DNA of 42,405 nt from Burkholderiales bacterium (GTDB lineage Bacteria; Pseudomonadota; Gammaproteobacteria; Burkholderiales; JBILQJ01). The notes beneath the pieces are model-generated. The model was not told where the DNA came from. It ran no database searches and saw nothing but the letters and a program-made list of their open reading frames with translations. How positions within the stretch are numbered: position 1 is the stretch's first letter; every line of letters starts with the position of its first letter. The DNA is taken from contig JBILQJ010000013.1 of assembly GCA_044373325.1 (NCBI GenBank), positions 1 to 42,405 of the forward strand. The letters run 5' to 3'. The translations under genes and the position numbers were made by a program. Below, piece by piece: positions 2,717 to 41,271 of the stretch.

Positions 2717-2765
2717 TTGCGGCCAACTTTTTTGTCCAAAAACAAGGAAAAAAGGTTGGCCGCAA
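2717..2765. repeat. GGCCAACC palindromic element copy 1 (left arm slightly degenerate)
   Basis: TTGCGGCCAACTTTTTTG-[tccaaaaacaagg]-AAAAAAGGTTGGCCGCAA. Confidence 0.85.
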
Positions 2766-2793
2766 TGCTTAAAAAAAGAGATAGTTAGGGTTT

Positions 2794-3891
2794 TTATGTT
2801 GAGGTTTCTGTTCTAGCGCGCCCACGTTGCGTTGTGAGTGGTAATCGAATGCTCATGATAAGGCCGTGGGTATCGGTTCTGTTTTGAGCAACTATTGTTC
2901 CTTTGTGAGCAATCACGGCACGTTCAGAAATCGCCAACCCCAATCCAAAGCCACGAGGTTGATTGTCTACCCTGACAAAAGGTTTGAAAATGTGCTCTAA
3001 ATCTTTTTCAGGTACGCCTGGCCCTTCATCAATCACGCCAATTAAAACAAATTCACCATCTTCAGCGGATTCGAGTACGATCCAAACATTAACGGTTGTA
3101 TTCTCTTCAGAATATTTCACGGCATTTCGTATGATGTTTTCAATGGCACGGTAAAGGAGTTCTGGCTGTGCATCTAGCCATATTTCAATTTTTGGTTGTA
3201 TGAAATTGACGGCTTTGTTGTAGGATTGAGCCTCAAAATCAGCATCGTCTGCGATTTGAGCAACGCTTTCTACCAAGGCAATGCGTTCGATTTTTTGTTG
3301 TTGTAAAATGCCAGAATCTAAACGAGACAGGGTTAAGAGTTCTCCAACGAGTTCATCCAGCTGATTGGCTTCTCTTTCTATTCTCAGGATGGTTTCTTCG
3401 ATTTTGAGCGGATTTTGGCGCACGAGTCCAACGGCAGCATGCATGCGAGCTAAGGGCGAACGCAGTTCATGAGAAACATCGTGCAAGAGATTTTGTTGTG
3501 CGACCATCAATTTTTCAAGTTTTCTGACCATATTATCAAAATCATTTGAAAGGTCAGACAATTCATCTCGACGTCCTTTGAATTTGGGAGAAATTTTAAT
3601 ATTAAAATTGCCTGTGCCAATCTCTTTGAATACTTGGCGTAAATAACGAACTGGGCGAGCGATATATAATGAAAGCAAGGTGCTCACCGATAAGCTGGCC
3701 AGTAAACCGATTAACATCCAAATGCTTGGAGAAAGCGCTGCAAAATCGAGTATGGTTTCGGACGCTGGAATGCCATCAATGGGTACATCGCTTTGTTTTT
3801 GATAGAGCCAAACTACCCCAACCACCGTCAGATTGATAATCAGAGAAGTTCCTAAAAAAGCTAAAAAGATTTTCCAAAATAAACGTCCCAT
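2794..3891 (-). CDS. sensor histidine kinase (CpxA/MisS-like; two TMs, very short periplasmic loop, HAMP, HisKA, HATPase)
   Basis: 365 aa; H-box LHDVSHELRSPLARM; N and G boxes (IIRNAVKYS, DEGPGVP, GFGLGLAI); two N-terminal TM helices separated by a ~25-aa loop. Confidence 0.85.
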   Translation of the reverse strand: MGRLFWKIFLAFLGTSLIINLTVVGVVWLYQKQSDVPIDGIPASETILDFAALSPSIWMLIGLLASLSVSTLLSLYIARPVRYLRQVFKEIGTGNFNIKISPKFKGRRDELSDLSNDFDNMVRKLEKLMVAQQNLLHDVSHELRSPLARMHAAVGLVRQNPLKIEETILRIEREANQLDELVGELLTLSRLDSGILQQQKIERIALVESVAQIADDADFEAQSYNKAVNFIQPKIEIWLDAQPELLYRAIENIIRNAVKYSEENTTVNVWIVLESAEDGEFVLIGVIDEGPGVPEKDLEHIFKPFVRVDNQPRGFGLGLAISERAVIAHKGTIVAQNRTDTHGLIMSIRLPLTTQRGRARTETST

Positions 3892-3984
3892 AATGATTTC
3901 TTTCGTTTTAAAAATGAATTTATTTTTTGACTCTGTATGGATTTAAATCCAAGCCTTAACTCTAACCCGAATTGGCTTTAATGA

Positions 3985-4020
3985 AAACCCCATTACGAAA
4001 AGCATTTCATAATGGGGTTT
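3985..4020 (-). other. perfect 11-bp stem-loop in the 162-bp gap between the RR and HK genes
   Basis: AAACCCCATTA-[14 nt]-TAATGGGGTTT; on the coding (minus) strand it is followed only by a short TTTTC run. Confidence 0.35.
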
Positions 4021-4053
4021 GGTTTATCGGGGCTGATTACGATGAAGGCGTCA

Positions 4054-4758
4054 TTATTGCAAACGGATTAACATATAACCAGAGCCTCGGACGGTTTGTA
4101 TCCACGAGCGGCCATCGGGTGTTTTGCCTAATTTTTGGCGTATGCTACAAATATGAACGTCAACGCTGCGATCAAAGCGAGACAATGGCCGAGATAAAGC
4201 ATCTTGAGACAATTGGGTTTTACTGACGACTTTGCCTGCTTGTCGTGCCAAGGCTTCCAATAGGCTGAATTCTGCGCCAGTTAAGTCCAAATCGTGATCT
4301 TTCCACACGGCACGGCGTTGTTCTAAATACAAAGTTAAATCGCCTTGTGTTAATTCGCTTGATTCTATGGTAACGGGCAAGTGATTTTTTGTACGGCGCA
4401 AAATGGCGCGGATGCGTGCGATGAGTTCACGAGGTACGCAAGGCTTGGTGACATAATCGTCAGCTTCGAGCTCTAGTCCGATGATGCGATCGATTTCTTC
4501 ACCGCGTGCGGTTAATAAAATCACGGGTACTGAATTTTCAGCACGGATACGACGTAAGGCTTCAATGCCGTTTAATTTGGGCATCATGACATCTAAGACC
4601 ACCAAATCAAAGTGCTTAGACAGCGCCATAGAAACACCCGCTTCACCATCATGGGCAATCGAAACTTCAAAATTTTCTTGCTCGGCATATTCTTTGAGCA
4701 TAGAAACGAGAACAACGTCATCATCAACAAAAAGTAGTTTGAGTGGGGCGCTAGACAT
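4054..4758 (-). CDS. OmpR-family response regulator (CpxR/MisR-like)
   Basis: 234 aa; receiver domain (LLFVDDD...D54...LTARGEEIDRIIGLELEADDYVTKP) plus a winged-helix domain with LTGAEFSLLEALA, SRFDRSVDVHICSIRQKL and RGSGYML, close to E. coli CpxR. Confidence 0.9.
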   Translation of the reverse strand: MSSAPLKLLFVDDDVVLVSMLKEYAEQENFEVSIAHDGEAGVSMALSKHFDLVVLDVMMPKLNGIEALRRIRAENSVPVILLTARGEEIDRIIGLELEADDYVTKPCVPRELIARIRAILRRTKNHLPVTIESSELTQGDLTLYLEQRRAVWKDHDLDLTGAEFSLLEALARQAGKVVSKTQLSQDALSRPLSRFDRSVDVHICSIRQKLGKTPDGRSWIQTVRGSGYMLIRLQ

Positions 4759-4987
4759 GATTTTTCCTTTTTAAAAATTTAAGGGTTTAAATGGGTTAAT
4801 TTACAGCTGAAAACAGCGATGAAAAGTTGCAATCACCTTGTTTTTATATCGACAAGTAATGATGATGTCCTGATTATAGCCAAATGTTAAGAATACTCCA
4901 GCTTTAATGTAAAATAATTTGATAAAAATTGTATTTGTTCTTGCTTTAGTTGAGTTGTTTTTATTTAAATCTTTGATTTTTAATCAG

Positions 4988-5037
4988 TTGTGGTCAATAT
5001 TTTTATCCGAAAATTGGGCAAAAAGGTTGGCCGCACG
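4988..5037. repeat. palindromic element copy 2 (left arm decayed)
   Basis: TTGTGGTCAATATTTTT-[atccgaaaattgggc]-AAAAAGGTTGGCCGCAC. Confidence 0.6.
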
Positions 5038-5317
5038 ATTTCTAATCGGTGAATTCTGCTGGTAGAATAAGGCTAGGGTTTCCACTTTTGGCATTACAAA
5101 AAAATGAGTTTTGTGACTAAGCGCTTAAACATCGGCGGCAGTAGCGCGTTAAAGTGGCTTATGAACTGGCTTGCTAAAATAAGGCTAGCCCAGTCATTTT
5201 TTGCTTACCAAGGCGTTGGGTTTTTTTGGTTCGCGCGATTTTTTTATCACGATATGTCGGTTTCAAGTGTAGGATAGTTTTTTACCTGCATCCGCGCATA
5301 TTAACGAGGAGACACAC

Positions 5318-6961
5318 ATGCCCGCCTATACCGATAAAACAAAGCTCAATCTTACTTATTTTCAAACCCAATCACTCAACATGCCTCAATTTAAAAAAAT
5401 GGCCTTGGCGTTTGTGGTTTTGGCTGCGACGGCCAATTTAGCGCAAGCCGCTGGCACTTTGGTGTATTGTTCGGATGCCAGCCCTGTTTTTTTTGATGGC
5501 GCGCAATCGAATTCAGGTACCGATTTTAATGCGGGTTCTCGCGCCATGTTTGATACTTTGCTGGCTTACAAGCCAGGGACTACCGAATTGATTCCGAGTT
5601 TGGCTAAAACATGGGACATTTCAGCGGATGGCAAAACCTATATTTTTCATTTGCGCGAGGGCGTAAAGTTTCACACCACCGATTATTTTAAACCCACGCG
5701 CACCTTGCAAGCCGAAGATGTGGTGTTCAGTTTTGGGCGCATGGTCAATCCGCAGCACCCCGCCAATAAAGTTTATCCTGTTGAATATCCTTATGTGGTT
5801 TCTACGGGCTTGAGGGCGAATATTGCGTCCATTAAAAAAATCGATGCCTTGACGGTTGAATTCAAATTAAAAGAAGTCGATGCGCCATTTTTGTCTAAAG
5901 TGGCGATGGCTTTTGCTGCGATACAATCGGTCGAGTACGCGCAACAATTGGCTAATGCGGGGCGGTTGTCCGATATCAATCACAAGCCAATCGGTACGGG
6001 GCCATTTGTGTTCGGCAGTTACGTCAAAGATGAGGTCATTCGTTACAACGGCAATGTTGAGTATTGGAATCCTGCGGCGATTAAATTGGATAAATTGGTC
6101 TTTGCAATTACCAAAGATGCGGCGGTGCGTTCGCAAAAGCTGACTAAAGGCGAGTGCGATTTGATTGCCAACGCCAATCCTGCGGATATTGCCGCAATGA
6201 AAGCCCATCCTGCTTTAAAAATAGAAACGGGTACTTCGCTCAACGTGGCTTATGTGGCTTACAACACTGAAAAAGCCGAGTTGAAAAATCCGCTGGTGCG
6301 GCAAGCGTTAGATCTGGTCATCGACAGGCAAGCCATTGTTGCGGCGGCTTATCAAGGCTATGCCAAATCGGCGGCCAGCTTTTATCCGCCCATTTTGTGG
6401 TCGCACAATCGCAGCCTCAAAAACGCGGCAGCCGACCTCACCAAAGCCCGTGCTTTGTTGGCCAAAGCAGGTTATCCAAATGGTTTTGAAACCGATTTAT
6501 GGGCTTTGACCAGTAATCCGATTCGCAAAATCACCGCCGAATTAATCCAAGCTGATTGGGCAAAAATTGGTGTAAAAGCGAACATTGTGACCTTTGAATG
6601 GGGCGAATTTTTAAAGCGCATCAAACAAGGCGAGCACAAAACCACGTTGATGGGTTGGACGGCGGATTATGCCGACCCCGATGGATTTGCCAGCCCTTTA
6701 TTGACCTGTAAAGCCGTTAATGGCGTGAATTTTGCACGCTATTGCGCCCCAGAATTTGAAGCATTAGTGAATAAAGCTGTAAATATCACCAACGTGGCCG
6801 AACGAACCCAGCTTTACGAACTAGCGCAAACGGTGTTTAAAGCCGATTTGCCTTGGTCGCCCATTGCCTACGCTTCGATTAATCAACCCATGCGAAAAAT
6901 GGTGCAAGGCTTTAAAGTGGGTGCTTTTGGTGAATATGATTTCCGTTATGTGAGTAAATAA
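5318..6961 (+). CDS. dppA: ABC transporter substrate-binding protein, DppA family (family 5 SBP), paralogue 1
   Basis: Signal peptide MPQFKKMALAFVVLAATANLAQA followed by AGTLVYCSDASP...; DppA-like throughout (E. coli DppA KTLVYCSEGSPEGF...). The ATG at 5318 has a strong SD (GAGGAG-6nt-ATG) but gives a 21-aa N-terminal extension; alternative ATGs at 5381 and 5399 have no SD. Confidence 0.85.
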   Translation: MPAYTDKTKLNLTYFQTQSLNMPQFKKMALAFVVLAATANLAQAAGTLVYCSDASPVFFDGAQSNSGTDFNAGSRAMFDTLLAYKPGTTELIPSLAKTWDISADGKTYIFHLREGVKFHTTDYFKPTRTLQAEDVVFSFGRMVNPQHPANKVYPVEYPYVVSTGLRANIASIKKIDALTVEFKLKEVDAPFLSKVAMAFAAIQSVEYAQQLANAGRLSDINHKPIGTGPFVFGSYVKDEVIRYNGNVEYWNPAAIKLDKLVFAITKDAAVRSQKLTKGECDLIANANPADIAAMKAHPALKIETGTSLNVAYVAYNTEKAELKNPLVRQALDLVIDRQAIVAAAYQGYAKSAASFYPPILWSHNRSLKNAAADLTKARALLAKAGYPNGFETDLWALTSNPIRKITAELIQADWAKIGVKANIVTFEWGEFLKRIKQGEHKTTLMGWTADYADPDGFASPLLTCKAVNGVNFARYCAPEFEALVNKAVNITNVAERTQLYELAQTVFKADLPWSPIAYASINQPMRKMVQGFKVGAFGEYDFRYVSK

Positions 6962-6985
6962 CCCTGTCTTTTTTATGACTAACCC

Positions 6986-7033
6986 TTGCGGCCAACCTTT
7001 TTCTGAAAAATCAGGGAAAAAGGTTGGCCGCAA
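6986..7033. repeat. palindromic element copy 3
   Basis: TTGCGGCCAACCTTTTTCTGAAAAATCAGGGAAAAAGGTTGGCCGCAAG, preceded by the shared 20-bp flank CTTTTTTATGACTAACCCTTG (6968-6988). Confidence 0.95.
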
Positions 7034-7145
7034 GAGTTCTCAACATTAATAAACAAGACAAAACCGCTTTCATTGCGCTAAAATGGCGCGTTTTAAGCGA
7101 CAATGTGTCATTTTGCACCATCAACCCTCATTTTTGAAAGTTTTT

Positions 7146-8531
7146 ATGAACGAACTCTTGAGCAAATTCATTCCGATTATTTTCGCTATTTTATTCCTCA
7201 GCTTGATTGTTTATGTCGCGGTGTTGATTTTTAAACTGCGCCGAGTGGTGCCAACCAATGAAGTGCACATTATCCAATCGAGCAAAACCACCATGTCGTA
7301 CGGCAAAGACACCGAAAACGGCAACACCTATTATGAGTGGCCATCTTGGATGCCAAAAATCGGTTTGACCAAAATCATTTTGCCCGTCAGCGTGTTTGAT
7401 TTGGACTTGCAAGACTACGAAGCTTATGACAAAGGGCGCTTGCCGTTTGTTGTGGATGTGAAGTCCTTCTTTCGCATACACGACTCCAACCTTGCGGCGC
7501 AACGCGTGGCCTCATTTGACGACTTAAAAAGCCAACTTAAAGCCATTGTACAAGGCGCGGTGCGCACCATTTTGGCCTCCAACGAAATTGAAGCCATCAT
7601 GCAAGGGCGATCGGAGTTTGGCGAAGCATTTACCTCCGAAGTCAGAGAGCAGCTCACCAATTGGGGCGTGGTTCCTGTCAAAAACATTGAATTAATGGAC
7701 ATTCGCGACGCGACGGACAGTCAAGTGATACACAACATCATGGAAAAGAAAAAATCCCTGATTGAAATGCAAAGCCGCTCAGAAGTGGCCGAAAATATGA
7801 AAACCGCCAAAGTCGCCGAAATCAACGCCAAGCGTGAAACCGAAGTTCAGGAACAAGACGCCATCCAAAAAGTGGGCGAGCGCAAAGCCGAAACCGACAA
7901 AGCGGTTGGGATTGCCAATGAAAAATCCACTCAAGAAATTGCCGAACAAGTCAAAATCACCAAAGAACGCCAAATGGAAGTGGTGAAAGTGACTGAAGTC
8001 AAGCAAGCCGAAATCACCAAAGAAGTGCAATTGGTCAAGGCCGAACAAGACAAGCAAACCAGCATTATTAACGCCGAAGCGGCCAAGCAAAAACTCATGA
8101 TTGTGGCGGAGGGCGAAAAGCAAAAAACCGTTTTGGATGCGGAAGGGTTGCTCGAGTCCAAACAACGTGAATCGCAAGGGATTGCGCTGGAAGGTCAAGC
8201 TCGCGCAGATGCAGAAAAAGCCATGCAATTGGCGCCCGTTCAAGCGCAAATCGTGTTGGCCAACGAAATTGGTAGCAACGACAAATATCAGCAGTATTTG
8301 TTGGCGGTTGAACAAATTAAAGCCAATCAAGTTGTGGGTGTCGAACAAGCGCGTGCGCTTGAGAAAGCCGACATTAAAATTATTGCCAACACCGGCGATG
8401 TCAGCTCTGGCATCAGCAATTTGGGCGATGTTTTGAGCTCAAAAGGCGGTACGTCATTGGCGGCAATGCTTGAAGGTTTGTCGCAAACCGACGCTGGCAA
8501 AGCATTGGTGAATAAAATTTCGGGGAAGTAA
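7146..8531 (+). CDS. flotillin/SPFH (band 7) domain protein, YqiK/FloT-like
   Basis: N-terminal TM helix (FIPIIFAILFLSLIVYVAVLIF), an SPFH core, then a long E/A/K/Q-rich coiled coil (flotillin tail). The start is taken at the internal ATG (MNELLSKF); the track ORF begins 21 codons earlier. Confidence 0.8.
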   Translation: MNELLSKFIPIIFAILFLSLIVYVAVLIFKLRRVVPTNEVHIIQSSKTTMSYGKDTENGNTYYEWPSWMPKIGLTKIILPVSVFDLDLQDYEAYDKGRLPFVVDVKSFFRIHDSNLAAQRVASFDDLKSQLKAIVQGAVRTILASNEIEAIMQGRSEFGEAFTSEVREQLTNWGVVPVKNIELMDIRDATDSQVIHNIMEKKKSLIEMQSRSEVAENMKTAKVAEINAKRETEVQEQDAIQKVGERKAETDKAVGIANEKSTQEIAEQVKITKERQMEVVKVTEVKQAEITKEVQLVKAEQDKQTSIINAEAAKQKLMIVAEGEKQKTVLDAEGLLESKQRESQGIALEGQARADAEKAMQLAPVQAQIVLANEIGSNDKYQQYLLAVEQIKANQVVGVEQARALEKADIKIIANTGDVSSGISNLGDVLSSKGGTSLAAMLEGLSQTDAGKALVNKISGK

Positions 8532-8584
8532 TCGGTTTTTATCACACGTTTGAATCTGAGTGAGCTTTGTTTTTTTATGACTAA

Positions 8585-8638
8585 CCCTTGTGGCCAACCT
8601 TTTTCTGAAAAATCAGGGGAAAAGGTTGGCCGCAAGGG
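8585..8638. repeat. palindromic element copy 4
   Basis: CCCTTGTGGCCAACCTTTTTCTGAAAAATCAGGGGAAAAGGTTGGCCGCAAGGG, with the same 20-bp 5' flank (8571-8590) as copy 3. Confidence 0.95.
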
Positions 8639-8725
8639 TTTTGTGTTGTTGGCGTTTAAACTGCGTTAGAATAGTGGTTTTTTCTAGCGCTAAAAACAAG
8701 GGCTAGTCAACACAGGCGATGAACC

Positions 8726-10405
8726 ATGATTTCTTTTTTCAAACGCCATAAAGCGAGTCACGCATTTTCGACCCGCTTGCCTCCCAAACCCGCCACTTTT
8801 TTGAACACACACGCCCCACTGCTTTTCTTTGCGTTGGTGTTTACGGTTTTTTTTAATGTCACTTTTTTTAAGAAATTGCTGGCGCTGTACGCTTTGCCCC
8901 AAAATTTAGGCTTTGTGATTTCGGTGACTTTGTGCCTTTTTTTTGTGCATGCTTTGTTGTTGGGGCTGGTGTGTTGGGGGCGAGCGCGGCAATGGCTGCT
9001 GGCTGGATTGATTGTTGTTGGTGGTTTTTCTGCGTATTACATGGACAATTTTCGGGTGGTCATTGATCAAATTATGTTGGTGAATGCCGTGCAAACCAAT
9101 CCTGCTGAGGCGGCCGATTTGTTGACGTGGCGCTTGTTGCTGTATGTGGTTTTTTTGGTGATTTTGCCCATCATTTTGTTGATAAAAACCCCTTGGCCAC
9201 GCGCCACTTTTGTGCGGGGTTTAAAACACAGGCTGGTGTATTTGTTGTTGTGTTTATTGGGTTTTGTGTTGGGCGTGTTGCCCGCGTATTCGCATTATCC
9301 CAGCTTTTTACGCCAGCATAAAATGGTGCGTTTTTATTCGAATCCAATCACGCCGATTTATTCGGCGGTGCAATTTGCCCGTCATCTGATACCCAAAGCA
9401 ACCGTGATTGCGCGGGTGTTAGATCACAACCCTAAAGCGGATCAAAATGAGGGGCATCGTGAGTTGGTGATTTTGGTGCTGGGCGAAACGGCACGCGCCG
9501 ATCGATTCTCGCTCAATGGCTACAAGCGATACACCAATCCCTTGTTGTCGAATGAAGCCAACGTGATTAGCTTGCCCAATCTCAGTTCTTGCGGCACCAG
9601 CACGGCGGTTTCTGTGCCGTGTATGTTTTCGGCTTTGCCGCGCGAGTCCTTTTCTGATGAAGCCTTTAAAGCCGAAGAAAATGTCATAGACGTGTTGGCA
9701 CGAGCTGGCGTTAACGTGTTGTGGCGGGATAACAATTCGGACAGTAAAGGTGTGATGAGTCGTTTTACGATAGAAAATTACAAAGAACCCGCACTGAATT
9801 CGGTTTGTGACGTGGAATGTCGCGATGAAGGGATGTTGGTGGGTTTGCAAAAGTACATCGATTCGCACCCTAAAGGCGATATTTTGATTGTGTTGCACGC
9901 CATGGGCAGCCACGGGCCTGCTTATAGTAAACGTTATCCCAAAGCCTTTGAACAGTTTAAGCCTGCTTGCGACACGGTACAGATTGAACAATGCGACAAA
10001 GCGTCCATTGACAACGCTTATGACAACACGATTTTATACACCGATTATTTTTTGAGTGAAACCATTGCTTTGCTCAAGGCAAATTCGCCTAAATTTGAAG
10101 CGTCTATGATATACATGAGCGATCATGGCGAATCTTTGGGCGAAAATGGCTTGTATTTACACGGCTTGCCGTATGCGTTAGCACCCCAAGAACAAAAAAA
10201 TCCTGCGGCTTTAGTGTGGTTTAGCGACGGCGCTTTGGCAGACAACACCGAAGCAAAAAAATTTGAGACCTTAAAAAAACAAGCCTCGCATCCGTATACT
10301 CACGATAATTTATTTCACAGTTTGTTGGGCTTGTTTGAAGTGCAAACCAGCGTTTATCGCCCAGAGTTAGACGTCTTTGACGCGCGTAGCAGCGCCGCGC
10401 CTTAA
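8726..10405 (+). CDS. eptA: phosphoethanolamine--lipid A transferase (EptA/LptA/MCR family)
   Basis: 559 aa; five N-terminal TM helices plus a periplasmic sulfatase-type domain. Motifs align almost residue-for-residue with MCR-1 and Neisseria LptA: VLGETARADRFSLNGY, CGTSTAVSVPCMFS, WRDNNSDSKGVM, HAMGSHGPAYSKRYP, YMSDHGESLGENGLYLHG. Confidence 0.92.
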   Translation: MISFFKRHKASHAFSTRLPPKPATFLNTHAPLLFFALVFTVFFNVTFFKKLLALYALPQNLGFVISVTLCLFFVHALLLGLVCWGRARQWLLAGLIVVGGFSAYYMDNFRVVIDQIMLVNAVQTNPAEAADLLTWRLLLYVVFLVILPIILLIKTPWPRATFVRGLKHRLVYLLLCLLGFVLGVLPAYSHYPSFLRQHKMVRFYSNPITPIYSAVQFARHLIPKATVIARVLDHNPKADQNEGHRELVILVLGETARADRFSLNGYKRYTNPLLSNEANVISLPNLSSCGTSTAVSVPCMFSALPRESFSDEAFKAEENVIDVLARAGVNVLWRDNNSDSKGVMSRFTIENYKEPALNSVCDVECRDEGMLVGLQKYIDSHPKGDILIVLHAMGSHGPAYSKRYPKAFEQFKPACDTVQIEQCDKASIDNAYDNTILYTDYFLSETIALLKANSPKFEASMIYMSDHGESLGENGLYLHGLPYALAPQEQKNPAALVWFSDGALADNTEAKKFETLKKQASHPYTHDNLFHSLLGLFEVQTSVYRPELDVFDARSSAAP

Positions 10406-10431
10406 GCCCTGACGAGTGAGTGTGCAGTACT

Positions 10432-10493
10432 TTGCGGCCAACCTTTTTATCTTGATTTTCATGACGAAAAACAGGAAAAAAGGTTGGCCGCAA
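10432..10493. repeat. palindromic element copy 5 (33-nt loop)
   Basis: TTGCGGCCAACCTTTTTAT-[cttgattttcatgacgaaaaacagg]-AAAAAAGGTTGGCCGCAA. Confidence 0.9.
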
Positions 10494-10709
10494 CGGTTTC
10501 CTTACAAAAAAATGAGTGTTTTAACAAATTTATTATATAAAAATGCCAGCAAATGGCGATGGTTGGACCGAGAGCTTTTTAAAATATAGAAAATAGACTT
10601 ACTAATAAATTGGTTGCGGTGTCACACTGGTTTTTTGTGGTGGCCTGTCTCGGCGTGCTTAGCGTAAGATTGGTTTTCTTAACAAAAAGTTAACCCAAAG
10701 GAGAAGACG

Positions 10710-12308: not shown

Positions 12309-12312
12309 GCCT

Positions 12313-12362
12313 TTGCGGCCAACCTTTTTTAAGCCATTTCTCTGTTAAAAGGTTGGCCGCAA
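12313..12362. repeat. palindromic element copy 6
   Basis: TTGCGGCCAACCTTTTTTAAGCCATTTCTCTGTTAAAAGGTTGGCCGCAA, 5 bp after the dppA2 stop. Confidence 0.95.
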
Positions 12363-12532
12363 CCTGAACGGTTGTTTGTTTTTACTTTAATTTACCCAAA
12401 AATCAAAAAATGTTATATCTTTTGGCTGTTGAACGGTGGCAAGGTTCAACAGGTTTGAACTTTGCGCAATGAATCATTTTAGGGCGCGGGGCTTCTTTTT
12501 GAGGATTAATTTTTTGATGGGTTAAGATAAAA

Positions 12533-14146: not shown

Positions 14147-14174
14147 ACCCGAGCAATCAGGGCAAATAAACATA

Positions 14175-14229
14175 TTGCGGCCAGCCTTGCCGAGTTTTTC
14201 GTCAAAAACATTAAAAAGGTTGGCTGCAA
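14175..14229. repeat. palindromic element copy 7 (both arms mutated)
   Basis: TTGCGGCCAGCCTTGCC...AAAAAGGTTGGCTGCAA. Confidence 0.7.
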
Positions 14230-14409
14230 CTTTATGGCGAATTTGGCTTGCACTGCAACATAAAAAAGCGCTTGCCAATAGAATGTGCTTGTTATATTGT
14301 CTTGCCTTCAATTTTTAGATGGCTTATCAGCCCTTATGTCATAAATGATAGGCTTTTTTGTCTATGGCGCATACGCGCAAAGATTTTTACATCATAAAAA
14401 GGAAGAAAC

Positions 14410-15999: not shown

Positions 16000-16018
16000 C
16001 ATCACCAACAGAGTGATT

Positions 16019-16077
16019 TGTGGCCAACCTTTTTAAGTGGTACTTGTTTTGTTTTTACTAAAAAGGTTGGCCGCAGT
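16019..16077. repeat. palindromic element copy 8
   Basis: TTGTGGCCAACCTTTTTAAG-[tggtacttgttttgtttttact]-AAAAAGGTTGGCCGCAG. Confidence 0.9.
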
Positions 16078-16105
16078 ATTGAGATGTCGCCTTGTGCTAA
16101 AAGTC

Positions 16106-16160
16106 GTTGGCCATTTTGTTGAGGCCAACCTTTTTGTTTTTGGCTGAAAACCAAGGCGCG
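16106..16160. repeat. decayed palindromic element copy 8b
   Basis: GTTGGCCATTTTGTTGAGGCCAACCTTTTTG...AAGGCGCG; the right arm is largely deleted. Confidence 0.5.
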
Positions 16161-16198
16161 TTATTGAATGATGTGGTTCTTTTTGCGGTGGATATCTT

Positions 16199-17227: not shown

Positions 17228-17239
17228 AGGATATTTTAA

Positions 17240-18187: not shown

Positions 18188-18260
18188 GGCCAGCAGCCTT
18201 TAAAGTTGATTTTCAGACACAAGGTTGGCCGCAAGCGTATTGCCTGCTGCGGCCAACCTT
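18188..18260. repeat. composite palindromic element (1.5 copies) between dppC and dppD
   Basis: Decayed left arm AAGGCCAGCAGCCTTT, then spacer, then AAGGTTGGCCGCAAGC-[gtattgcct]-GCTGCGGCCAACCTT. The last two arms form a tight hairpin in the inverted configuration. Confidence 0.8.
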
Positions 18261-18304
18261 GAACGGGTTTCGATACTGAACGATTTGGATATTTGGAGTG
18301 GCGC

Positions 18305-20290: not shown

Positions 20291-20340
20291 TTGCGGCCAA
20301 CCTTTTTCCCTATTTTTTGGGGTAAAAGGTTGGCCGCAAG
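20291..20340. repeat. palindromic element copy 10
   Basis: TTGCGGCCAACCTTTTTCCCTATTTTTTGGGGTAAAAGGTTGGCCGCAAG. Confidence 0.95.
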
Positions 20341-22646: not shown

Positions 22647-22693
22647 TTGCGGCCAACCTTTTAACCTAAAAAATAGGAAAAGGTTGGCCGCAA
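22647..22693. repeat. palindromic element copy 11
   Basis: TTGCGGCCAACCTTTTAACCTAAAAAATAGGAAAAGGTTGGCCGCAA, 18 bp after the eno stop. Confidence 0.95.
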
Positions 22694-22922: not shown

Positions 22923-23987
22923 ATGCGTTTTTTGAGGCTGTTGGAGTCCATATTTTTCCGTTCTAAGGGTATGTCTGCTTGTTCGACTGGCGAAATTAAT
23001 AGTATTTTAATTGTCAAACTGACTGCCTTAGGCGATCAGTTATTTGCCATGGCCATGATAGCGGATTTAAAAAAACGTTGGCCGCAGGCTCACATAGATT
23101 GGGTTGTGGACTCTCAATTTCAGGCCATCCCGGCATTAAGCCCCGATTTGCGCTTTATCCATGCTGTGCCTTTAAAGTCTTACGCAAAATCTTGGTACAA
23201 ACTCAGTACTTGGGATGCGTTGTGGCAATTTATTCAACGCTTACGCCAGCAACGTTACGATTTATGCATTGATGCGCAAGGCTTATGGAAAAGCAGTTTA
23301 ATCACCGCTTTTAGCCGACATCAATCTTGCGTTGGCTTCGTGGCAGACGCTTGTGGAGAAAGCCCTGCGGCGTGGTTTTACGATAGACATTTTGCCCCGA
23401 AAATCCATCAACATGGCGCTGAACGGTTACGGGCGCTGGCGGCATTTGCGGCCGATACCAACACAAATGAAGCAATAAGTTTTCATGTTGTGCCACCTCA
23501 TCTGGATACTAAAAAGGTTTTGTTAGATACTGGCGGTCGGCCTATCGCCATCTTGTTGGTGTCAGCATCAAAGCCACACAAATTATGGACAAATGCCCAT
23601 TGGGCTGCGCTCGCCCAAGCCTTAAATCAAGCAGGTTATGTGTGCTATGTGTCATGGGGTAACCCTGAAGAACGGTTAAATGCCACCGAAATTATTGAAG
23701 CGGTTGGCCACGAGCGTACTCGATTATTACCGTATACGGCACTCAATGATTGGCCTGCCTTATTGAGTCTAAGCGCCTTGGTTATTGGCGTTGATACAGG
23801 TTTGTTGCATTTGGCCAACGTCATGCGCATCCCTTGCGTGGGCTTGTTTATTAATGAGACTTCCACTTTATTTCCTTTTAGTTGGGCTTTGAGTATCGAG
23901 CGCAAGGTTGTGTCAAACAACGATGAGCCTATGCCAAATGAAGTGTTTGAACGCTTAAAAAATTTACCGTTAGCTCACAAGGTGTGA
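22923..23987 (+). CDS. waaC: ADP-heptose:LPS heptosyltransferase I (GT9)
   Basis: Aligns with E. coli WaaC/RfaC (LIVKLTALGD, IDWVVDSQF, DAQGLWKS, HGAERLRAL, GVDTGLLHLA). Start uncertain: 22875, 22923 or 22971. 22923 is chosen because it has AAGGA-7nt-ATG and lies downstream of the predicted promoter. Confidence 0.8.
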   Translation: MRFLRLLESIFFRSKGMSACSTGEINSILIVKLTALGDQLFAMAMIADLKKRWPQAHIDWVVDSQFQAIPALSPDLRFIHAVPLKSYAKSWYKLSTWDALWQFIQRLRQQRYDLCIDAQGLWKSSLITAFSRHQSCVGFVADACGESPAAWFYDRHFAPKIHQHGAERLRALAAFAADTNTNEAISFHVVPPHLDTKKVLLDTGGRPIAILLVSASKPHKLWTNAHWAALAQALNQAGYVCYVSWGNPEERLNATEIIEAVGHERTRLLPYTALNDWPALLSLSALVIGVDTGLLHLANVMRIPCVGLFINETSTLFPFSWALSIERKVVSNNDEPMPNEVFERLKNLPLAHKV

Positions 23988-24036: not shown

Positions 24037-24086
24037 CTGCGGCCAACCTTTTCCCTGTTTTTTTTGGGTAAAAGGTTGGCCGCAAG
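24037..24086. repeat. palindromic element copy 12 (same sub-family as copy 10)
   Basis: CTGCGGCCAACCTTTTCCCTGTTTTTTTTGGGTAAAAGGTTGGCCGCAAG. Confidence 0.95.
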
Positions 24087-25955: not shown

Positions 25956-26009
25956 TTGCGGCCAACCTTTTTCTAAAATTCAGTGAAAAATTCGAGTTTT
26001 GGTGGCTGT
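25956..26009. repeat. palindromic element copy 13 (right arm decayed by insertion)
   Basis: TTGCGGCCAACCTTTTTCTAAAATTCAGTGAAAAA-ttcgagtttt-GGTGGCTGTG; spacer of the copy 3/4 sub-family. Confidence 0.6.
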
Positions 26010-26040
26010 GATATGATGCTTATAAAAGAGAGGGCGATAA

Positions 26041-29850: not shown

Positions 29851-29898
29851 TTGTGGCCAACCTTTTTCTGCGGTTTTTAGTGAAAAAGGTTGGCCGCA
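29851..29898. repeat. palindromic element copy 14
   Basis: TTGTGGCCAACCTTTTTCTGCGGTTTTTAGTGAAAAAGGTTGGCCGCAG, 9 bp after the fabF stop. Confidence 0.95.
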
Positions 29899-29953
29899 GT
29901 GTTTTTTTTGAAACGAGTTAAACAGGATTTAATCGGCATGGAAAAGAGCGCAC

Positions 29954-31437: not shown

Positions 31438-31487
31438 TTGCGGCCAACCTTTTTCGCCTGAAAGTCAGTAAAAAGGTTGGCCGCAAG
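31438..31487. repeat. palindromic element copy 15
   Basis: TTGCGGCCAACCTTTTTCGCCTGAAAGTCAGTAAAAAGGTTGGCCGCAAG. Confidence 0.95.
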
Positions 31488-33894: not shown

Positions 33895-34884
33895 TCAGCT
33901 TTTTTGCAGTGCGGGACGTGCTTGGCCGAGTATTTGTAAATAATGGCTTAATTCTGGCGGTAAAGGGGCAATAAAGGTCATCATTTCGCCGCTGCTTGGG
34001 TGGGGCAGCTTCAAGCGCCTTGCGTGTAAAAACATGCGCTTTAAGCCTTTGCTGCTCAAGGCACGGTTGGCCGCAAAGTCGCCGTATTTAGGATCGCCCG
34101 CAATTGGACAGCCAAGGTGTTGCATATGCACGCGAATTTGGTGCGTGCGCCCTGTTTTTAGCAAGACATCGACCAAGGTACAGTCTTGGTATTGCTGTTC
34201 GACGGTAAAAATGGAATGCGCATAAATGCCATCGTTTTCGTTGACTTGCACCATGCGCTCGCCGTTGGGCAAATGAAAACGCAATAAAGGGGCTTTGACG
34301 TGGCTGACTGGCTGACCGTTGTGCGTGGGCCACACGCCCAATCCCAGCGCAGTATAAGATTTTTCAGGTACATCGGCGCGTATCATGGCGTGGAGCTTGA
34401 CCAGCGCCGACCGTTTTTTGGCTATCATTAACAAGCCAGACGTTTCGCGGTCTAAGCGATGAACCAATTCTAAATATCGCGCTTCAGGACGATTTTTGCG
34501 CAATTGTTCGATGACCCCAAAGCTCACGCCACTGCCGCCATGAACCGCCGTGCCGCAGGGCTTGTTAATGACCAGCAGATCGTCATCTTCAAAAATAATC
34601 GGAAATTGCCCCGCAGGAATCAAGGCCTCTTTATTTAAATCTTTTTGGGCGGTGCGGATGGGCGGAATACGGATGACGTCGTCAGTTTCTAAGCGATAAT
34701 CGATTTTGACGCGCCCTTTGTTGACCCGCACTTCGCCACCGCGCACAATGCGATAAATATGGCTTTTTGGAACGCCTTTTAAAATTTTAATGAGGAAGTT
34801 ATCCAAACGTTGGCCACACTCTTCGTTAGAAATGGTGTACATCTGAACATTTTGTTGCATAGAATCTTTGCGTGTTGGGTTCAT
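33895..34884 (-). CDS. rluC: 23S rRNA pseudouridine synthase RluC (RluA family)
   Basis: S4 domain plus PseudoU_synth_2 domain; VKGVPKSHIYRIVRGGEVRVNKGRVK, HRLDRETSGLLMIAKK and GRTHQIRVH match E. coli RluC. Divergent from rne as in E. coli. Start codon uncertain (MNPTRKDSM / MQQNVQMY). Confidence 0.88.
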   Translation of the reverse strand: MNPTRKDSMQQNVQMYTISNEECGQRLDNFLIKILKGVPKSHIYRIVRGGEVRVNKGRVKIDYRLETDDVIRIPPIRTAQKDLNKEALIPAGQFPIIFEDDDLLVINKPCGTAVHGGSGVSFGVIEQLRKNRPEARYLELVHRLDRETSGLLMIAKKRSALVKLHAMIRADVPEKSYTALGLGVWPTHNGQPVSHVKAPLLRFHLPNGERMVQVNENDGIYAHSIFTVEQQYQDCTLVDVLLKTGRTHQIRVHMQHLGCPIAGDPKYGDFAANRALSSKGLKRMFLHARRLKLPHPSSGEMMTFIAPLPPELSHYLQILGQARPALQKS

Positions 34885-35402
34885 ATTGCTCTATACTTGC
34901 GCTGTTTTAAAAAGTGAACTTCGCTTTGGGTGAAGTGAAATCTGATCGAGAAAAGGCAATCGGGGCGCGAGTCTACCGCCCCGATGTTAAAAGTTTAAGC
35001 TCCGTAAGACTTTGTTTTTTAGCTGGGTTTATGGCTTAAGGTTTTCTTATGCGCCTAAAAATAGACAGTTTTTCATTATACCACCGTTTTGTTTTAGCGA
35101 GACCTGGGCTTTATTTTCCCTTGTTTTTTGTCCCAAAATTTGACGATGCAAAGCCGTTTTTGGTGGCAATTGCGCCGCCTTTTTTAAAACCGTCACCCGC
35201 AAGAAAATTTGGTTTTTCTGGCGAATAAAAAATCATTCTATTTAAATTTAAAATTTAAACTTTTTAAAAGAGTGTCGGTTTCATTCGATGCTCATTAATA
35301 AATCAGGTCAGTTTTGTTTGAAAACAAAAAACTATTGTATAACTGGGTTAGTCAAAAAAAACAGTGCATTAATCTAATTTTTAAAAATTCAAAAAAAATA
35401 GA

Positions 35403-35452
35403 ACGCCAACTTTCATTAATTCTAAAAAAGCATTAAAAAGGTTGGCCGAAAA
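35403..35452. repeat. decayed palindromic element copy 16 in the rne leader region
   Basis: ACGCCAACTTTCATT...AAAAAGGTTGGCCGAAAAG. Confidence 0.45.
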
Positions 35453-38452: not shown

Positions 38453-38491
38453 AAAAAGGTTGGCCGCAGAATGTTTGCGGCCAACCTTTTT
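38453..38491. repeat. palindromic element copy 17, inverted tight-hairpin configuration; likely bidirectional terminator after rne
   Basis: AAAAAAGGTTGGCCGCAG-[aatgtt]-TGCGGCCAACCTTTTTG; stem flanked by A6 and T5; 10 bp after the rne stop. Confidence 0.85.
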
Positions 38492-38529: not shown

Positions 38530-39114
38530 GTGACAACATTAGTATTGGCTTCTACTTCTCCTTACCGCCTTGAAGTGGTTAAACGCTTACAATTGCCCGT
38601 TGTGGCGGCACGTCCCCATTGTGACGAAACGCCTTTTGCGCATGAAACCGCTTTAGAAACCGCCGTGCGTTTGGCAGAAACCAAAGCGATGTCTTTGCAG
38701 ACTGATTATCCGGATAGCCTGATTATTGGCGGCGATCAGGTGGCTTTGCTGGATGATCAACAAATTGGTAAACCCAAAGATGTGGCGCATGCCGTTGAAA
38801 TGCTGTTGTGGATGAGTGGGCGCACCGTGATTTTTTATTCGGCGCTGTGTTTGCTCAACGCCAAAACAGGACGCACACAAGCCGCCGTCGGTGTGACCAA
38901 AGTGACGTTTCGGCCCTTAACGGAAGCTAAAATCCGCCGCTATTTGGCGGCTGAACCCGATGCATTAAACTGCGCTGGGGCGGCAAAAAGCGAGGCTTTG
39001 GGCGGAGCATTGATTTTAAAAATCGAAAGCGACGACCCAGCCGCCCTCATCGGCGTGCCTTTGTTTCAGTTGGTGACTTTTTTAGAAAACGAAGGCTTAA
39101 ACGTGTTGGCTTAG
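38530..39114 (+). CDS. Maf-family nucleoside-triphosphate pyrophosphatase (YceF-like)
   Basis: 194 aa; GTG start preceded by AAGGAAAA; LVLASTSPYR...LIIGGDQV...ALIGVPLF typical of Maf/YceF. Confidence 0.8.
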   Translation: MTTLVLASTSPYRLEVVKRLQLPVVAARPHCDETPFAHETALETAVRLAETKAMSLQTDYPDSLIIGGDQVALLDDQQIGKPKDVAHAVEMLLWMSGRTVIFYSALCLLNAKTGRTQAAVGVTKVTFRPLTEAKIRRYLAAEPDALNCAGAAKSEALGGALILKIESDDPAALIGVPLFQLVTFLENEGLNVLA

Positions 39115-39166
39115 AGCCAGCGTTTTATCGTCATCACTCAATTTTTTCAGTTGGATACTAAGATTT

Positions 39167-41257
39167 ATGGGGCAACTTGTACTAAACGGCTTGCCGTTTT
39201 TGGCTTTTTTTTGTTTGATTTTGGCGTTAATCGTTGCGCGTCCTGATGGCTTGTGGGTTTGGTTGGGTGTGTTAATCCTGCCGTTTTTATCTCCGGTACA
39301 TTTGTCGCCCTTGCCTCAGTTTACGGCCGAGGCGACGGTGTTTGGGCTGACTTGTGTCGTGGTTTTGGTGCAATTATGTCGCGGTTTGTGGGCGCGGCAG
39401 TTGCCATCGATGGCCATTTTTTGGTTGATGTTGGCGCTGATTTGGGGCGTGCAGCCACTGTTTGTGCCTGTCTTTTATGGCGGATTGAATGCAATTGCGG
39501 CGCTGGTTTTTGTGGGCTTGGCTTTGTTGTCAACGACCAGTTTTGCGTATGTGCAACAATTTGAACGCGAACACAGCCCAGAAGCCTTGATGTGTTTGGT
39601 TGCTCAAGCGGTCATTTTAGGCAGTGTTTTGCAGTCTTTTATTGGCTTTGCGCAATTAACCGAGCTGGTGTTGTATCTCAAAGATGCTTTGTTTTACGAC
39701 GCCAATCGCGTGTCCAGCAACATTGTTGGCCACATCGGCCAACGCAATCAATATGGACAATATGTATTTTGGGGCATCGTGGCGGCCGCGTATTTGTTGG
39801 CCACTCGCACTCGACAAGGCGCAGCGACCTCGACAGGCTTGCCGCTGTTATCTGCCCAAATTGGCTTTGCTTTGGTGTGGGTAAGTCCTTTAGTGATAGG
39901 GCTGGCGGCTTTGTATTTTGGCGAGCCGACTTTGTGGTTTAAATACCGTTTGCCCATCTGCGCCCTTGCTTTTATTTGGCTTAATGGCGGTGTTTGGTGG
40001 TTTTACGAGCAATCTGCCGAGCGCCAAGTGGTCATCAGTTTGGTGTTGGTGATGCTGTGGTTGAGTATTGCGTTGGTGTTTAGCGGATCGCGCACGGTGT
40101 TGTTGTATGCCGCCGCCCTGCTGGCTTTGGCTTTCTTTTGGTGGTTGTTGCCCAAAGACAGTTTACAAGCAGCGAGAGAGCGGAAATCTTTGGTGAAGTG
40201 GAGCTGTGCGGCCGTTTTTTTTGTGTTTAGCATGCAGTTGGTGGTGCCTTGGACGGTGGACAATGCACAACGCCTCAGCGGTTACAGTCAAACATCGGTA
40301 GAAAGTGGTTTGTCTCGTTTGGCGGGCAATGCCGATGGCATGAGCGCACGGCGCATGGTGGAATGGAAAAAAGCATGGATGAGCTTTGAAACTGCGCCTG
40401 TATACGGCGTGGGTTTTATGCAATATTCGGCGCGTAGCGTAGCCTATCAGGCTCTGCCTGAATTTCGCCACAGCGCCATGAATAGCAGTTTGTTTGCGCA
40501 TTCGCACAACATCGTCACGCAATTGTTGGCTGAAATGGGTTTAATCGGGGCGGTGGTTGCTGTGGGCGGCTTCTTGTTGTTGTGTTTGCGTTTGTTGCGT
40601 AGCCCTGCAAAAACACGCTATTTTTTGCCGTTTACGCTACTTTGTGTGATGTTAATTCACAGTTTCTTAGAATATCCTTTGTGGTACGTGTATTTTTTAG
40701 GCGCATTTGCTGTCTTGAGCGCTTTGTTGCCCCAAGCGCATTACAAATTGCCTTTGCTTGGGCGCTGGTTGGGCGGATTCTTGGCGCTGGGTTTGGTGTT
40801 TGCTTTGGTGTGGGGAAGCAGCAGTTATTTGCTCTTAAGAAAATTGCGTGCGCCTGAAAAAGCAGAATACAAACCGCTGTATTATCAAAAACTATTGAAG
40901 ATGGAAAGCACGCATCCGCTGTTGGGGTTTTATGCCTTGAACGAGTTGAGCAATTTTGTGGCGGTTTCCACCGACAACTTGGCCGAAAAACGGGCTTTGT
41001 TGATAAAAATGGCCGCGACGCGTCCTTATCCCAACGTGTTGTTGCGCTTGGCTCAAGTACAAACCTTGTCGGGCAATCCAGCGGCGGCGCAGAGAGCGCT
41101 TGAATTGGCCATGGCTTCTTATCCCATTTATGCGCCTTCTTTTTTGAGCCGTTTGGGCGACGATGTCCGTTGGCAAGGCTTGGCCGAGGAAATCAAGCGC
41201 TTGGCGGCCGCCGATAAACAAGCCCGCGCGCAGGCCAAACTCAACGCAGTGAAGTAA
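39167..41257 (+). CDS. O-antigen ligase-domain (Wzy_C) membrane protein, PglL/TfpO-like O-oligosaccharyltransferase candidate with C-terminal soluble domain
   Basis: 696 aa, about 12 TM helices. The Wzy_C core includes FSGSRTVLLYAAALLALAFFWWLL...SAMNSSLFAHSHNIVTQLLAEMGLIG (the H/R-containing periplasmic loop). A ~150-aa hydrophilic C-terminus follows, as in Neisseria PglL. Confidence 0.7.
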   Translation: MGQLVLNGLPFLAFFCLILALIVARPDGLWVWLGVLILPFLSPVHLSPLPQFTAEATVFGLTCVVVLVQLCRGLWARQLPSMAIFWLMLALIWGVQPLFVPVFYGGLNAIAALVFVGLALLSTTSFAYVQQFEREHSPEALMCLVAQAVILGSVLQSFIGFAQLTELVLYLKDALFYDANRVSSNIVGHIGQRNQYGQYVFWGIVAAAYLLATRTRQGAATSTGLPLLSAQIGFALVWVSPLVIGLAALYFGEPTLWFKYRLPICALAFIWLNGGVWWFYEQSAERQVVISLVLVMLWLSIALVFSGSRTVLLYAAALLALAFFWWLLPKDSLQAARERKSLVKWSCAAVFFVFSMQLVVPWTVDNAQRLSGYSQTSVESGLSRLAGNADGMSARRMVEWKKAWMSFETAPVYGVGFMQYSARSVAYQALPEFRHSAMNSSLFAHSHNIVTQLLAEMGLIGAVVAVGGFLLLCLRLLRSPAKTRYFLPFTLLCVMLIHSFLEYPLWYVYFLGAFAVLSALLPQAHYKLPLLGRWLGGFLALGLVFALVWGSSSYLLLRKLRAPEKAEYKPLYYQKLLKMESTHPLLGFYALNELSNFVAVSTDNLAEKRALLIKMAATRPYPNVLLRLAQVQTLSGNPAAAQRALELAMASYPIYAPSFLSRLGDDVRWQGLAEEIKRLAAADKQARAQAKLNAVK

Positions 41258-41271
41258 GAGGTTGGCCGCAG
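41258..41271. repeat. half palindromic element (right arm only) abutting the pglL-like stop
   Basis: AGAGGTTGGCCGCAG; a degenerate left-arm-like CAGGCCAAACTC lies inside the last codons of the CDS. Confidence 0.5.

Follow-up and report, generated by a model that had tools for sequence, protein, structure and literature searches.

The stretch of DNA analysed here (contig JBILQJ010000013.1, referred to as the window) is a complete metagenomic contig of 42,405 bp in which a short word recurs, mostly as inverted pairs that fold into hairpins downstream of genes. In the following, a single occurrence of the word is called a half-site and a pair of half-sites with its loop is called an element. The window is ordinary chromosome: the gene order starts with rpsD, rpoA, rplQ, a CpxRA-like pair and four dppA paralogues (among which lie an SPFH gene and eptA), and continues with dppBCDF, eno, rfaC, kdsA, xerD, hemF, acpP, fabF, mlaE, apt, glyA, rluC, rne, maf and a gene for a PglL/Wzy_C-type ligase. 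A tRNA scan of the window found none, and no Rfam family reached its gathering threshold. A preliminary description, made from the window alone, had reported the repeats as a dense family of ~50-bp palindromic intergenic elements with a consensus not recognised from any described repetitive extragenic palindromic (REP), bacterial interspersed mosaic element (BIME), Correia or ERIC family; this absence of a match, to Rfam families included, was confirmed.

The RluC protein of the window was 99% identical to other metagenomic copies, after which identity dropped to 67% (Vogesella urethralis), 65% (Neisseriaceae bacterium JH1-16 and Crenobacter), 62% (Aquitalea) and 60% (Kingella). The drop from 99% to 67% marks the host as a deep-branching uncultured member of the Neisseriales. 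The GC content of this lineage is about 45% (40-53%). A metagenome scan for RluC relatives gave a single distant locus (47% identity), where the motif was absent.

Over-representation of the word was measured in several ways. With at most one mismatch, GCGGCCAACC was matched 41 times in the window, compared with 4.1 expected and a maximum of 10 in 100 dinucleotide-preserving shuffles. The exact 10-mer was present in 26 copies in 42 kb, where Markov models of order 0 to 3 predict 0.05-0.45. Overlapping pieces of AAAAAGGTTGGCCGCAA made up the most frequent 8-, 10- and 12-mers of the window. When the 17-mer TTGCGGCCAACCTTTTT was searched at ≤4 mismatches, 40 half-sites were obtained (about one in shuffles): 33 intergenic, one across a stop codon and six in coding sequence (CDS). 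The dense family of the preliminary description is thus real, and all of its 19 listed loci were found again. Its statement that the arms are more than 90% identical between copies also held, with a mean pairwise identity of 93.6% measured within the window. Its statement that every copy is intergenic was correct for the 33 half-sites but overlooked an exact core in rluC (34065) and a copy with two mismatches in rfaC (23071).

What is repeated differs from what had been described. The loops between the 17-mers (13-28 nt) were only 56% identical on average, even in the best orientation, and the 17-nt half-site folds at -0.2 kcal/mol, which leaves it without a hairpin of its own. Strong hairpin pairs are indeed formed, but judged by these measures the repeated unit is a non-palindromic word of 14-17 nt, tTGCGGCCAACCTT(TTT), and not a mobile palindrome of 50 bp. 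Pairs were of two types: 13 were inside-out (TTGCGGCCAACCTTTTT-loop-AAAAAGGTTGGCCGCAA) and two were tight and in the opposite order (18218 and 38453). In addition there were four single or decayed half-sites (16119, 25956, 35435 and 41255).

Sister strains were represented by syntenic metagenome contigs (96-97% identical overall, cited below by their L numbers), and ten orthologous element sites were aligned. Variable columns amounted to 5/340 in the arms (1.5%), 64/560 in the flanks (11.4%) and 36/163 in the loops (22.1%). After eno and after dppA2, an unrelated loop stood between unchanged arms in sister strains, and the loop after dppF was flipped in some of them. Among 14 element sites compared, no empty site was found: the element was present in every sister strain with data, so that the presence/absence polymorphism proposed as a check did not appear. 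Since the arms vary by 1.5% compared with 11.4% in the flanks and 22.1% in the loops, the high arm identity probably reflects constraint on, or biased repair of, a specific word, and not recent transposition of a 50-bp unit. The recent spread that had been proposed for the family, as miniature inverted-repeat transposable elements (MITEs) or as REPs mobilised by a REP-associated tyrosine transposase (RAYT), is not supported, in view of this pattern, the lack of target-site duplications and the occurrence of the word inside genes of other genera (see below).

If the elements were MITEs, the 17-bp arms would be the terminal inverted repeats of a tiny non-autonomous transposon, and their length, the fairly uniform size of the elements and their intergenic position are as expected of one. 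However, none of the 13 inside-out copies had a consistent target-site duplication (0-1 nt at 12/13, and one 3-nt chance match), and the interior was far less conserved than the ends (56% versus 94%). The family also includes single half-sites and tight pairs with the order reversed, the supposed terminal repeat is abundant inside genes of other genera, and 14/14 compared sites were occupied. We consider this origin very improbable.

The divergence between strains was mosaic. When positions 10039-39844 of the window were compared with L076, L080 and L081, divergence ranged from 0 to 27% per 300 bp, with steps at the elements at 16018 (after dppA4) and 24037 (after rfaC), and in L076 the BPSS1780-family gene differed by about 25%. 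Such a pattern points to frequent homologous recombination. Contigs L077-L079 and L098 end inside an element and L086 starts beside one: the element breaks up metagenome assemblies of the organism. The motif is consequently not restricted to the window, one of the possibilities that the preliminary description had named; a further element was also found just beyond the right end of the window, 24 nt past a xanthine/uracil permease gene (contig L098), and the same word is present in Vogesella.

A copy stood 5-57 nt past the stop codon at 17 of the 34 gene 3' ends, in tandem or convergent intergenic regions. The claim that copies lie just after stop codons was accurate for these gene ends but failed at three copies in divergent promoter regions (4988, 25956 and 35400), precisely those that are decayed or halved. 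The hairpins of full copies have stems of 15-17 bp and folding energies of -25 to -37 kcal/mol. The positions of all copies, from left to right along the window, were as follows.

In the first part of the window, an inside-out pair of 49 bp lies 29 nt past the cpxA stop (2717..2765, cpxA on the minus strand; -25.4 kcal/mol), with one arm mismatch (CCAACT) that was not seen in sister strains. The divergent promoter region between cpxR and dppA1 holds a decayed inside-out pair (4988..5036) with the left arm TTGTGGTCAATATTTTT and folding energies of -19.3 / -8.5 kcal/mol. A perfect inside-out pair follows dppA1 by 25 nt (6986..7033; -31.7 kcal/mol) and another inside-out pair lies past orf482, the SPFH/Band_7 gene (8588..8635); these two are contained in the two copies (6969-7038 and 8571-8640, 96% identical) of a 70-bp direct repeat that brackets the SPFH/Band_7 gene (7083-8531). 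The pair at 10432..10493, 27 nt past the eptA stop, has a long loop (62 bp in all) with four phased A/T tracts and folds at -36.6 kcal/mol. The pair at 12313..12362 lies 5 nt past the dppA2 stop and is followed by a small hairpin with a T-run (12359-12385); its loop differs in strain L076. Past dppA3, the inside-out pair is partly decayed (14175..14229; GCGGCCAGCC / GGTTGGCTGC), and in the sense RNA the two changes still leave G.U pairs. The pair at 16018..16076 (-29.3 kcal/mol) lies 19 nt past the dppA4 stop; an extra single half-site on the plus strand, TTGAGGCCAACCTTTTT (16119..16135), stands between it and dppB, is perfect in L076 and is followed by a T-run.

The four dppA paralogues (starting at 5318, 10710, 12533 and 14410; ~60-80% DNA identity) lie upstream of a single dppBCDF operon, the whole region extending from 5318 to 20261, and the SPFH gene and a gene for an EptA/MCR-like phosphoethanolamine transferase (8726-10405) lie between them. 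Within the operon, a tight pair (GGTTGGCCGC-loop-GCGGCCAACC, 18218..18263; -30.0 kcal/mol) is located between dppC and dppD and lacks the A and T tracts. Directly after this hairpin, L078 carries a 17-bp tandem duplication (CGGGTTTCGATACTGAA; about 18270-18290 in the window). An inside-out pair followed by a T-run lies between dppF and a convergent DUF3299 gene (20291..20339); its loop is the one found inverted, in L078, L080 and L082.

The pair at 22647..22693, 18 nt past the eno stop, has the same arms in sister strains, with unrelated loop and flanks. The eno-rfaC spacer (22694-22904) is ~190 bp longer in the window than in L076, L080-L082 and L084, and the BLAST alignments to these contigs all break at 22644/22904. 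The near-copy in the rfaC CDS (23071..23087, minus strand; AAAAACGTTGGCCGCAG, two mismatches) was kept in sister strains. An inside-out pair followed by a T-run lies between rfaC and the convergent BPSS1780-family gene (24037..24085). The latter (24108-24950) is a conserved gene for a 280-aa membrane protein, for which matches to BPSS1780 and DUF7544 were sub-threshold only.

In the last part, an exact 17-mer half-site with a decayed partner lies in the divergent kdsA-xerD region (25956..26010). The pair at 29851..29899, 9 nt past the fabF stop, folds at -30.0 kcal/mol and is followed by T8 (nine T in its 10-nt tail). A pair with perfect arms (31438..31486) lies upstream of apt and 34 nt past the stop of orf320, a conserved gene on the minus strand (31520-32482) whose 320-aa product had no Pfam or NCBIfam match. 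The copy in the rluC CDS (34060..34076, minus strand) is single and contains the exact 10-mer core (34065-34074), and the divergent rluC-rne region holds a half-site with a decayed partner (35400..35451) that reads GGTTGGCCGAAA here and GGTTGGCCGCAA in sister strains. Ten nucleotides past the rne stop, the tight pair A5-GGTTGGCCGCAG-loop-TTGCGGCCAACC-T5 (38453..38491; -27.6 kcal/mol) has the shape of a bidirectional intrinsic terminator, as in Vogesella. Finally, a single half-site on the minus strand (41255..41271) overlaps the stop codon of the PglL/Wzy_C-like gene (39167-41257). This gene encodes a 696-aa membrane protein with Wzy_C, Wzy_C_2 and PglL_A domains, of the O-oligosaccharyltransferase / O-antigen-ligase type; the pilin glycosylation ligase of Neisseria is of like type, which is a weak hint that pili may be present.

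The distribution along genes bears on a role in mRNA. Copies follow eno, rfaC, fabF, eptA, rne and others; the suggestion that the copies after dppA genes set the ratio of substrate-binding protein to permease was not sustained, as elements follow genes of all kinds (the 17 of 34 mentioned above). The more general part of that suggestion, a hairpin role at mRNA 3' ends, is plausible, but is not tied to dppA. Such a role is favoured by the 17 of 34 occupied gene ends, by the decay of the copies in divergent promoter regions and by the lack of A/T tracts in the intra-operon copy. A T-run follows about five inside-out copies only (8588, 20291, 24037, 29851 and, via the extra small hairpin, 12313), and the tight copy at 38453 has the intrinsic terminator form (GC-rich stem, short loop, U-tract). 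Arm mismatches, read in the sense transcript, were G.U in seven cases versus A.C in two; this bias is a weak hint of possible selection on the RNA hairpin. We read these data as follows: in this lineage the word would persist mainly as paired hairpin modules at transcript ends.

The order of the parts within the elements is unusual. Of 14 pairs located downstream of genes, 12 are inside-out, i.e. T5 and A5 are inside the stem and not outside. A length of 47-49 bp and a central A- or T-run are shared by nine of the 13 inside-out elements, which gives them three A/T tracts spaced 8-11.5 bp apart. The layout points either to a required DNA shape (helical phasing, as in the flanks of the uptake signal sequences discussed below) or to occasional copying of the whole unit. 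As to the reason for the inside-out order, our guess would be intrinsic DNA curvature or an extended stem. In both copies of the 70-bp direct repeat, 17 nt are flank outside the element (TTTTTTATGACTAACCC), and the SPFH gene between the two copies may have been inserted or duplicated via recombination at an element.

The 17-mer was also scanned against one genome per species (185,579 species), and the figures given here are among the matches listed. Repeated matches occurred in at least seven Vogesella species, in "Beta proteobacterium L13" and in two Neisseriaceae metagenome-assembled genomes (59-68% GC), and other species had scattered single chance matches. In this Vogesella set, hairpins of the form AAAAAGGTTGGCCGCAA-N(2-20)-TTGCGGCCAACCTTTTT stand directly past stop codons, with the arrangement A5-stem-loop-stem-T5 and hence the shape of a bidirectional terminator; at least 30 tight pairs were counted versus four doubtful inside-out pairs. 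After masking of the seed matches in 212 kb of these loci, the commonest 10-mers were still TGCGGCCAAC (90 copies) and GCGGCCAACC (82 copies), compared with expected counts of 1.5-3.8 (order-0 to order-3 Markov models) or 10.6 (order 5), and the extended consensus was tTGCGGCCAACCTTg. Most copies of the masked set were single and inside open reading frames of high G+C content at third codon positions, oriented either way and distributed over all six frames (29, 20, 10, 9, 8 and 4); one example lies in the DEVGRGTSTF box of mutS. Relative to genes, 38 copies were forward and 42 reverse. The expectation that copies would be strand-unbiased was therefore borne out, but the companion expectation that they would be intergenic was not, since at least in the sampled loci the Vogesella copies are mostly intragenic.

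As a control for bias, loci of ~20 kb were chosen via rluC from named relatives and their genes were called. In the rluC locus of V. urethralis (21 kb), GTTGGCCGCA was present 11 times and was the top 10-mer; 9/14 matches to the 8-mer core GTTGGCCG were in CDS, and the word occurred at ~0.4 per kb. The same pattern was found in a JGI metagenome contig (L104, RluC 67% identical). In the rluC locus of JH1-16 the top 10-mer was the one-base variant GTTGGCCGAA, and in the ~20-kb rluC loci of Aquitalea, Crenobacter and Paludibacterium the word was not enriched. Within the window, a single exact core of 26 was in CDS (the rluC copy), equivalent to ~0.03 per kb of coding DNA, and gene-borne copies were roughly 15-fold sparser than in V. 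urethralis. Near-matches in window genes nevertheless numbered five, versus 0.96 expected at ≤2 mismatches under a synonymous-codon null (P about 0.002). On viral contigs, 11 single matches were found, about chance level by our estimate.

The word appears from these scans to be a lineage "watermark" of a subgroup of the Neisseriales: Vogesella and the 45%-GC lineage carry TTGCGGCCAACC, and Pseudogulbenkiania, Lutiella and JH1-16 carry TTTCGGCCAACC. For Pseudogulbenkiania/Lutiella, where it is the top 10-mer, the one-base variant GTTGGCCGAA was listed previously at about 1100 copies per genome, with 1153 in NH8B (Frye et al., 2013, Table S1D, PMC3630211). This 10-mer differs by one base from GTTGGCCGCA, and the window has the Vogesella form; its anatomy, pairing, genomic position and function are not described in PMC3630211. 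The change that distinguishes GTTGGCCGAA occurs once in the window, where the decayed copy at 35435 carries it as a private mutation. In the text of papers, no use of the word as a repeat was found (10-mers of both strands and the GAA dialect were searched), only primers and unrelated papers. The GAA dialect was thus tabulated in 2013 without analysis, and for the Vogesella form, the pairing, the taxonomic pattern and the inside-out 49-bp element no description was found in the full-text literature.

The occurrence of the word across genera weighs on the proposal that the elements are REPs or REP doublets (REPINs), in which the 50-bp palindrome would be the substrate of a RAYT (an IS200/IS605-like tyrosine transposase) acting in trans and would have spread recently through extragenic DNA. 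The window looks much like this: as in REP, BIME and REPIN sequences of Enterobacteria and Pseudomonas, the copies are palindromic, densely spaced and, with few exceptions, extragenic, stand at gene 3' ends and plausibly stabilise upstream mRNA (with malE-malF as precedent), most units have a uniform size of 47-49 bp and one 70-bp duplicate takes in flank. The half-site, however, is not palindromic by itself, as a REP within a REPIN would be, and the arms are kept while the loops, seemingly unconstrained, vary in sequence as well as in length, among the copies of the genome and also at orthologous sites. Elsewhere the word occurs as single unstructured intragenic copies in all six frames, so that extragenic confinement fails for the family as a whole, and it is conserved across lineages with 65-67% RluC identity and 60-68% GC although REPs are typically species-specific. 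Among the genes encoded in the window there was no transposase or RAYT (a search of the genome for one had been recommended); this is a weak point, as only 42 kb were covered. We judge mobilisation of this kind improbable.

Three further candidates were rejected. Operator sites of a single regulon, a possibility raised at the outset, were ruled out by the variable spacing, the 3'-end location and the unrelated genes. Polar words of the Chi/KOPS type were ruled out because the word is too long and has no orientation bias (the 38 forward and 42 reverse copies above). The NTS/Ssn motif was ruled out for lack of sequence similarity.

The attC sites of a chromosomal integron were considered because the arms, GGCCAAC...GTTGGCC, come near the attC core RYYYAAC...GTTRRRY, and because attC sites, too, would be imperfect palindromes directly past open reading frames, their left side with AAC and their right side with GTT. 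The elements are, however, flanked by large genes of housekeeping function that lie on either strand (eno, fabF, rne, dppBCDF), other genera share the divergent rluC-rne pair, and the core sites are each one base off the consensus. Furthermore, the sole tyrosine recombinase of the window scores far better as XerD (1.5e-92) than as an integron integrase (5.4e-30), and copies are present inside genes of other genera. An integron is effectively refuted.

The main alternative, which we rate as unlikely but well above the mobile-element and integron proposals, is a module that binds a protein or forms hairpins and has no part in DNA uptake. The word would be the site of an abundant sequence-specific protein (a nucleoid or gyrase/IHF-type binder as at BIMEs, an Ssn-type single-stranded DNA (ssDNA) nuclease or an RNA-binding factor), with the pairs as 3'-end structures only. 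The arms are conserved in a sequence-specific manner, the three phased A/T tracts suggest a DNA-shape requirement, and the post-stop position, the very stable RNA hairpins and the G.U-biased mismatches are all as such a module would have them. There is also a precedent for hairpin repeats with a dedicated protein: in Neisseriales, hundreds of NTS/dRS3 hairpin repeats stand around genes, go with a dedicated ssDNA nuclease, SsnA, and are linked to transformation (Chenal et al., 2025, PMC11893778). That system differs from the present one, as the word resembles neither CGTCATTCCCGCGMAVGCGGGAATCYRG nor the NTS/SRM consensus, and no GIY-YIG gene was found among the genes encoded in the window. The hundreds of unpaired intragenic copies in Vogesella have neither a hairpin nor a 3'-end position; an explanation by RNA structure alone therefore fails for the family. 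The combination of features is also one known so far from uptake sequences only.

To our knowledge, only among uptake sequences is a ~13-nt word over-represented 20- to 50-fold or more and at the same time present inside genes and split into one-base dialects between genera; such sequences are known from two bacterial families only. In the accepted account, the DNA uptake sequence (DUS) arose in the Neisseriaceae after their split from Chromobacterium, and its CTG core, which all accepted dialects share, is indispensable. The present word resembles the DUS of Neisseriaceae in several respects: the hosts are of the same order, the DUS is likewise a word of 10-14 nt at about 0.4-0.6 copies per kb that ranks as top oligomer, it occurs like the Vogesella copies as intragenic singles in both orientations together with A-tract/stem/loop/stem/T-tract pairs past stop codons, and it has one-base "dialects" between sister genera. 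It differs in that DUS dialects have TGAA/TGTA at positions 7-10 (here AACC) and that the CTG core is absent here. In addition, the hosts here lie outside the Neisseriaceae sensu stricto, where the DUS is thought to have arisen, and in the window the word is near-absent from genes and its pairs are in inside-out order. The first six bases of the word, GCGGCC, equal positions 1-6 of vitDUS of Vitreoscilla massiliensis, GCGGCCTGTA.

The uptake signal sequences (USS) of Pasteurellaceae share with the word a GCGG-containing core, helically phased A/T-rich tracts and the use of inverted pairs as terminators. Their words (AAGTGCGGT / ACAAGCGGT) are both absent from the window, as are all described DUS or USS words; the Pasteurellaceae belong to another bacterial class, and their copies are mostly intragenic. 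With bidirectional intrinsic terminators the full shape is shared by the copy at 38453 and by the Vogesella pairs, whereas 12/14 window pairs have the tracts inside the stem.

The combination of a ~13-nt word that is 20- to 50-fold or more over-represented, intragenic single copies, terminator pairs, one-base dialects and lack of enrichment in the sampled loci of more remote relatives therefore favours an uptake-signal type of word (DUS/USS kind). We give an even chance to the view that the word works like an uptake sequence, and do not file it as a DUS dialect. New DUS dialects are still assigned on genomic-signature evidence of this kind (bioRxiv 10.1101/2025.10.24.684340). More tentatively, and with somewhat less confidence than in the uptake function as such, a DUS-type system may exist outside the Neisseriaceae proper, in Vogesella, in Pseudogulbenkiania/Lutiella/JH1-16 and in the 45%-GC lineage, with the word TT[G/T]CGGCCAACC lacking the CTG core; in the AT-rich lineage it would have become a composite element of 47-49 bp, in which a pair of inverted words encloses three helically phased A/T tracts and which doubles as the main hairpin at transcript ends.

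Several observations weigh against an uptake signal that doubles as a transcript-end hairpin. The DUS definition of Frye et al. (CTG core at positions 6-8, A at 10) does not describe the word: GCGGCCAACC keeps C6 but has AACC at positions 7-10. To the same authors, the 10-mer of Pseudogulbenkiania/Lutiella was "not an obvious DUS", and they did not find ComP in Chromobacterium violaceum (Frye et al., 2013, PMC3630211). A full-text literature search returned no competence or uptake papers for Vogesella, Chromobacteriaceae or Pseudogulbenkiania. The distribution in the window is REP-like and not DUS-like, with 1/26 exact cores in CDS versus ~0.4 copies per kb in V. urethralis. The uniform three-tract layout of 47-49 bp in 9/13 elements hints at whole-unit copying, and the 70-bp duplicate shows that copying of a unit plus flank happened at least once. 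As regards transcription, a consensus terminator scan of positions 1-20000 called no element, a 3' U-tract is missing from most inside-out hairpins, and where a gene end has no element (rplQ/tautomerase, mlaE/apt and the ends of kdsA and cpxR), there is a bidirectional terminator of the ordinary kind, with a unique stem.

If the word is an uptake signal, the DNA receptor of a type IV pilus / competence machinery would prefer double-stranded DNA that carries it. Biased uptake followed by homologous recombination would then re-seed and repair the word, which would leave arms near-invariant while loops and flanks drift and strains become mosaic; the observed mosaic divergence, with its steps at 16018 and 24037, fits upkeep in this way. 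In this genome, the word would survive almost only where it is tolerated and useful, that is, in the inverted pairs seen 5-57 nt past stop codons. Where the hairpin is followed by a T-run (8588, 20291, 24037, 29851 and the tight copy at 38453), it would terminate transcription. Where it has no T-run (after dppA1, eptA, dppA3/4 and eno, and in dppBCDF), it would act as a barrier to 3'-exonucleases or as an attenuator, with read-through kept.

Should this be true, either the DUS is older than thought and its receptor has been retargeted, or uptake signals were invented independently a third time, and the origin and retargeting of uptake specificity would become testable, also in culturable Vogesella. 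A word that is spread through the genes of one lineage and confined to paired gene-end hairpins in another would be a natural experiment, and would bear on the interconversion of uptake signals, terminators and REP-like elements.

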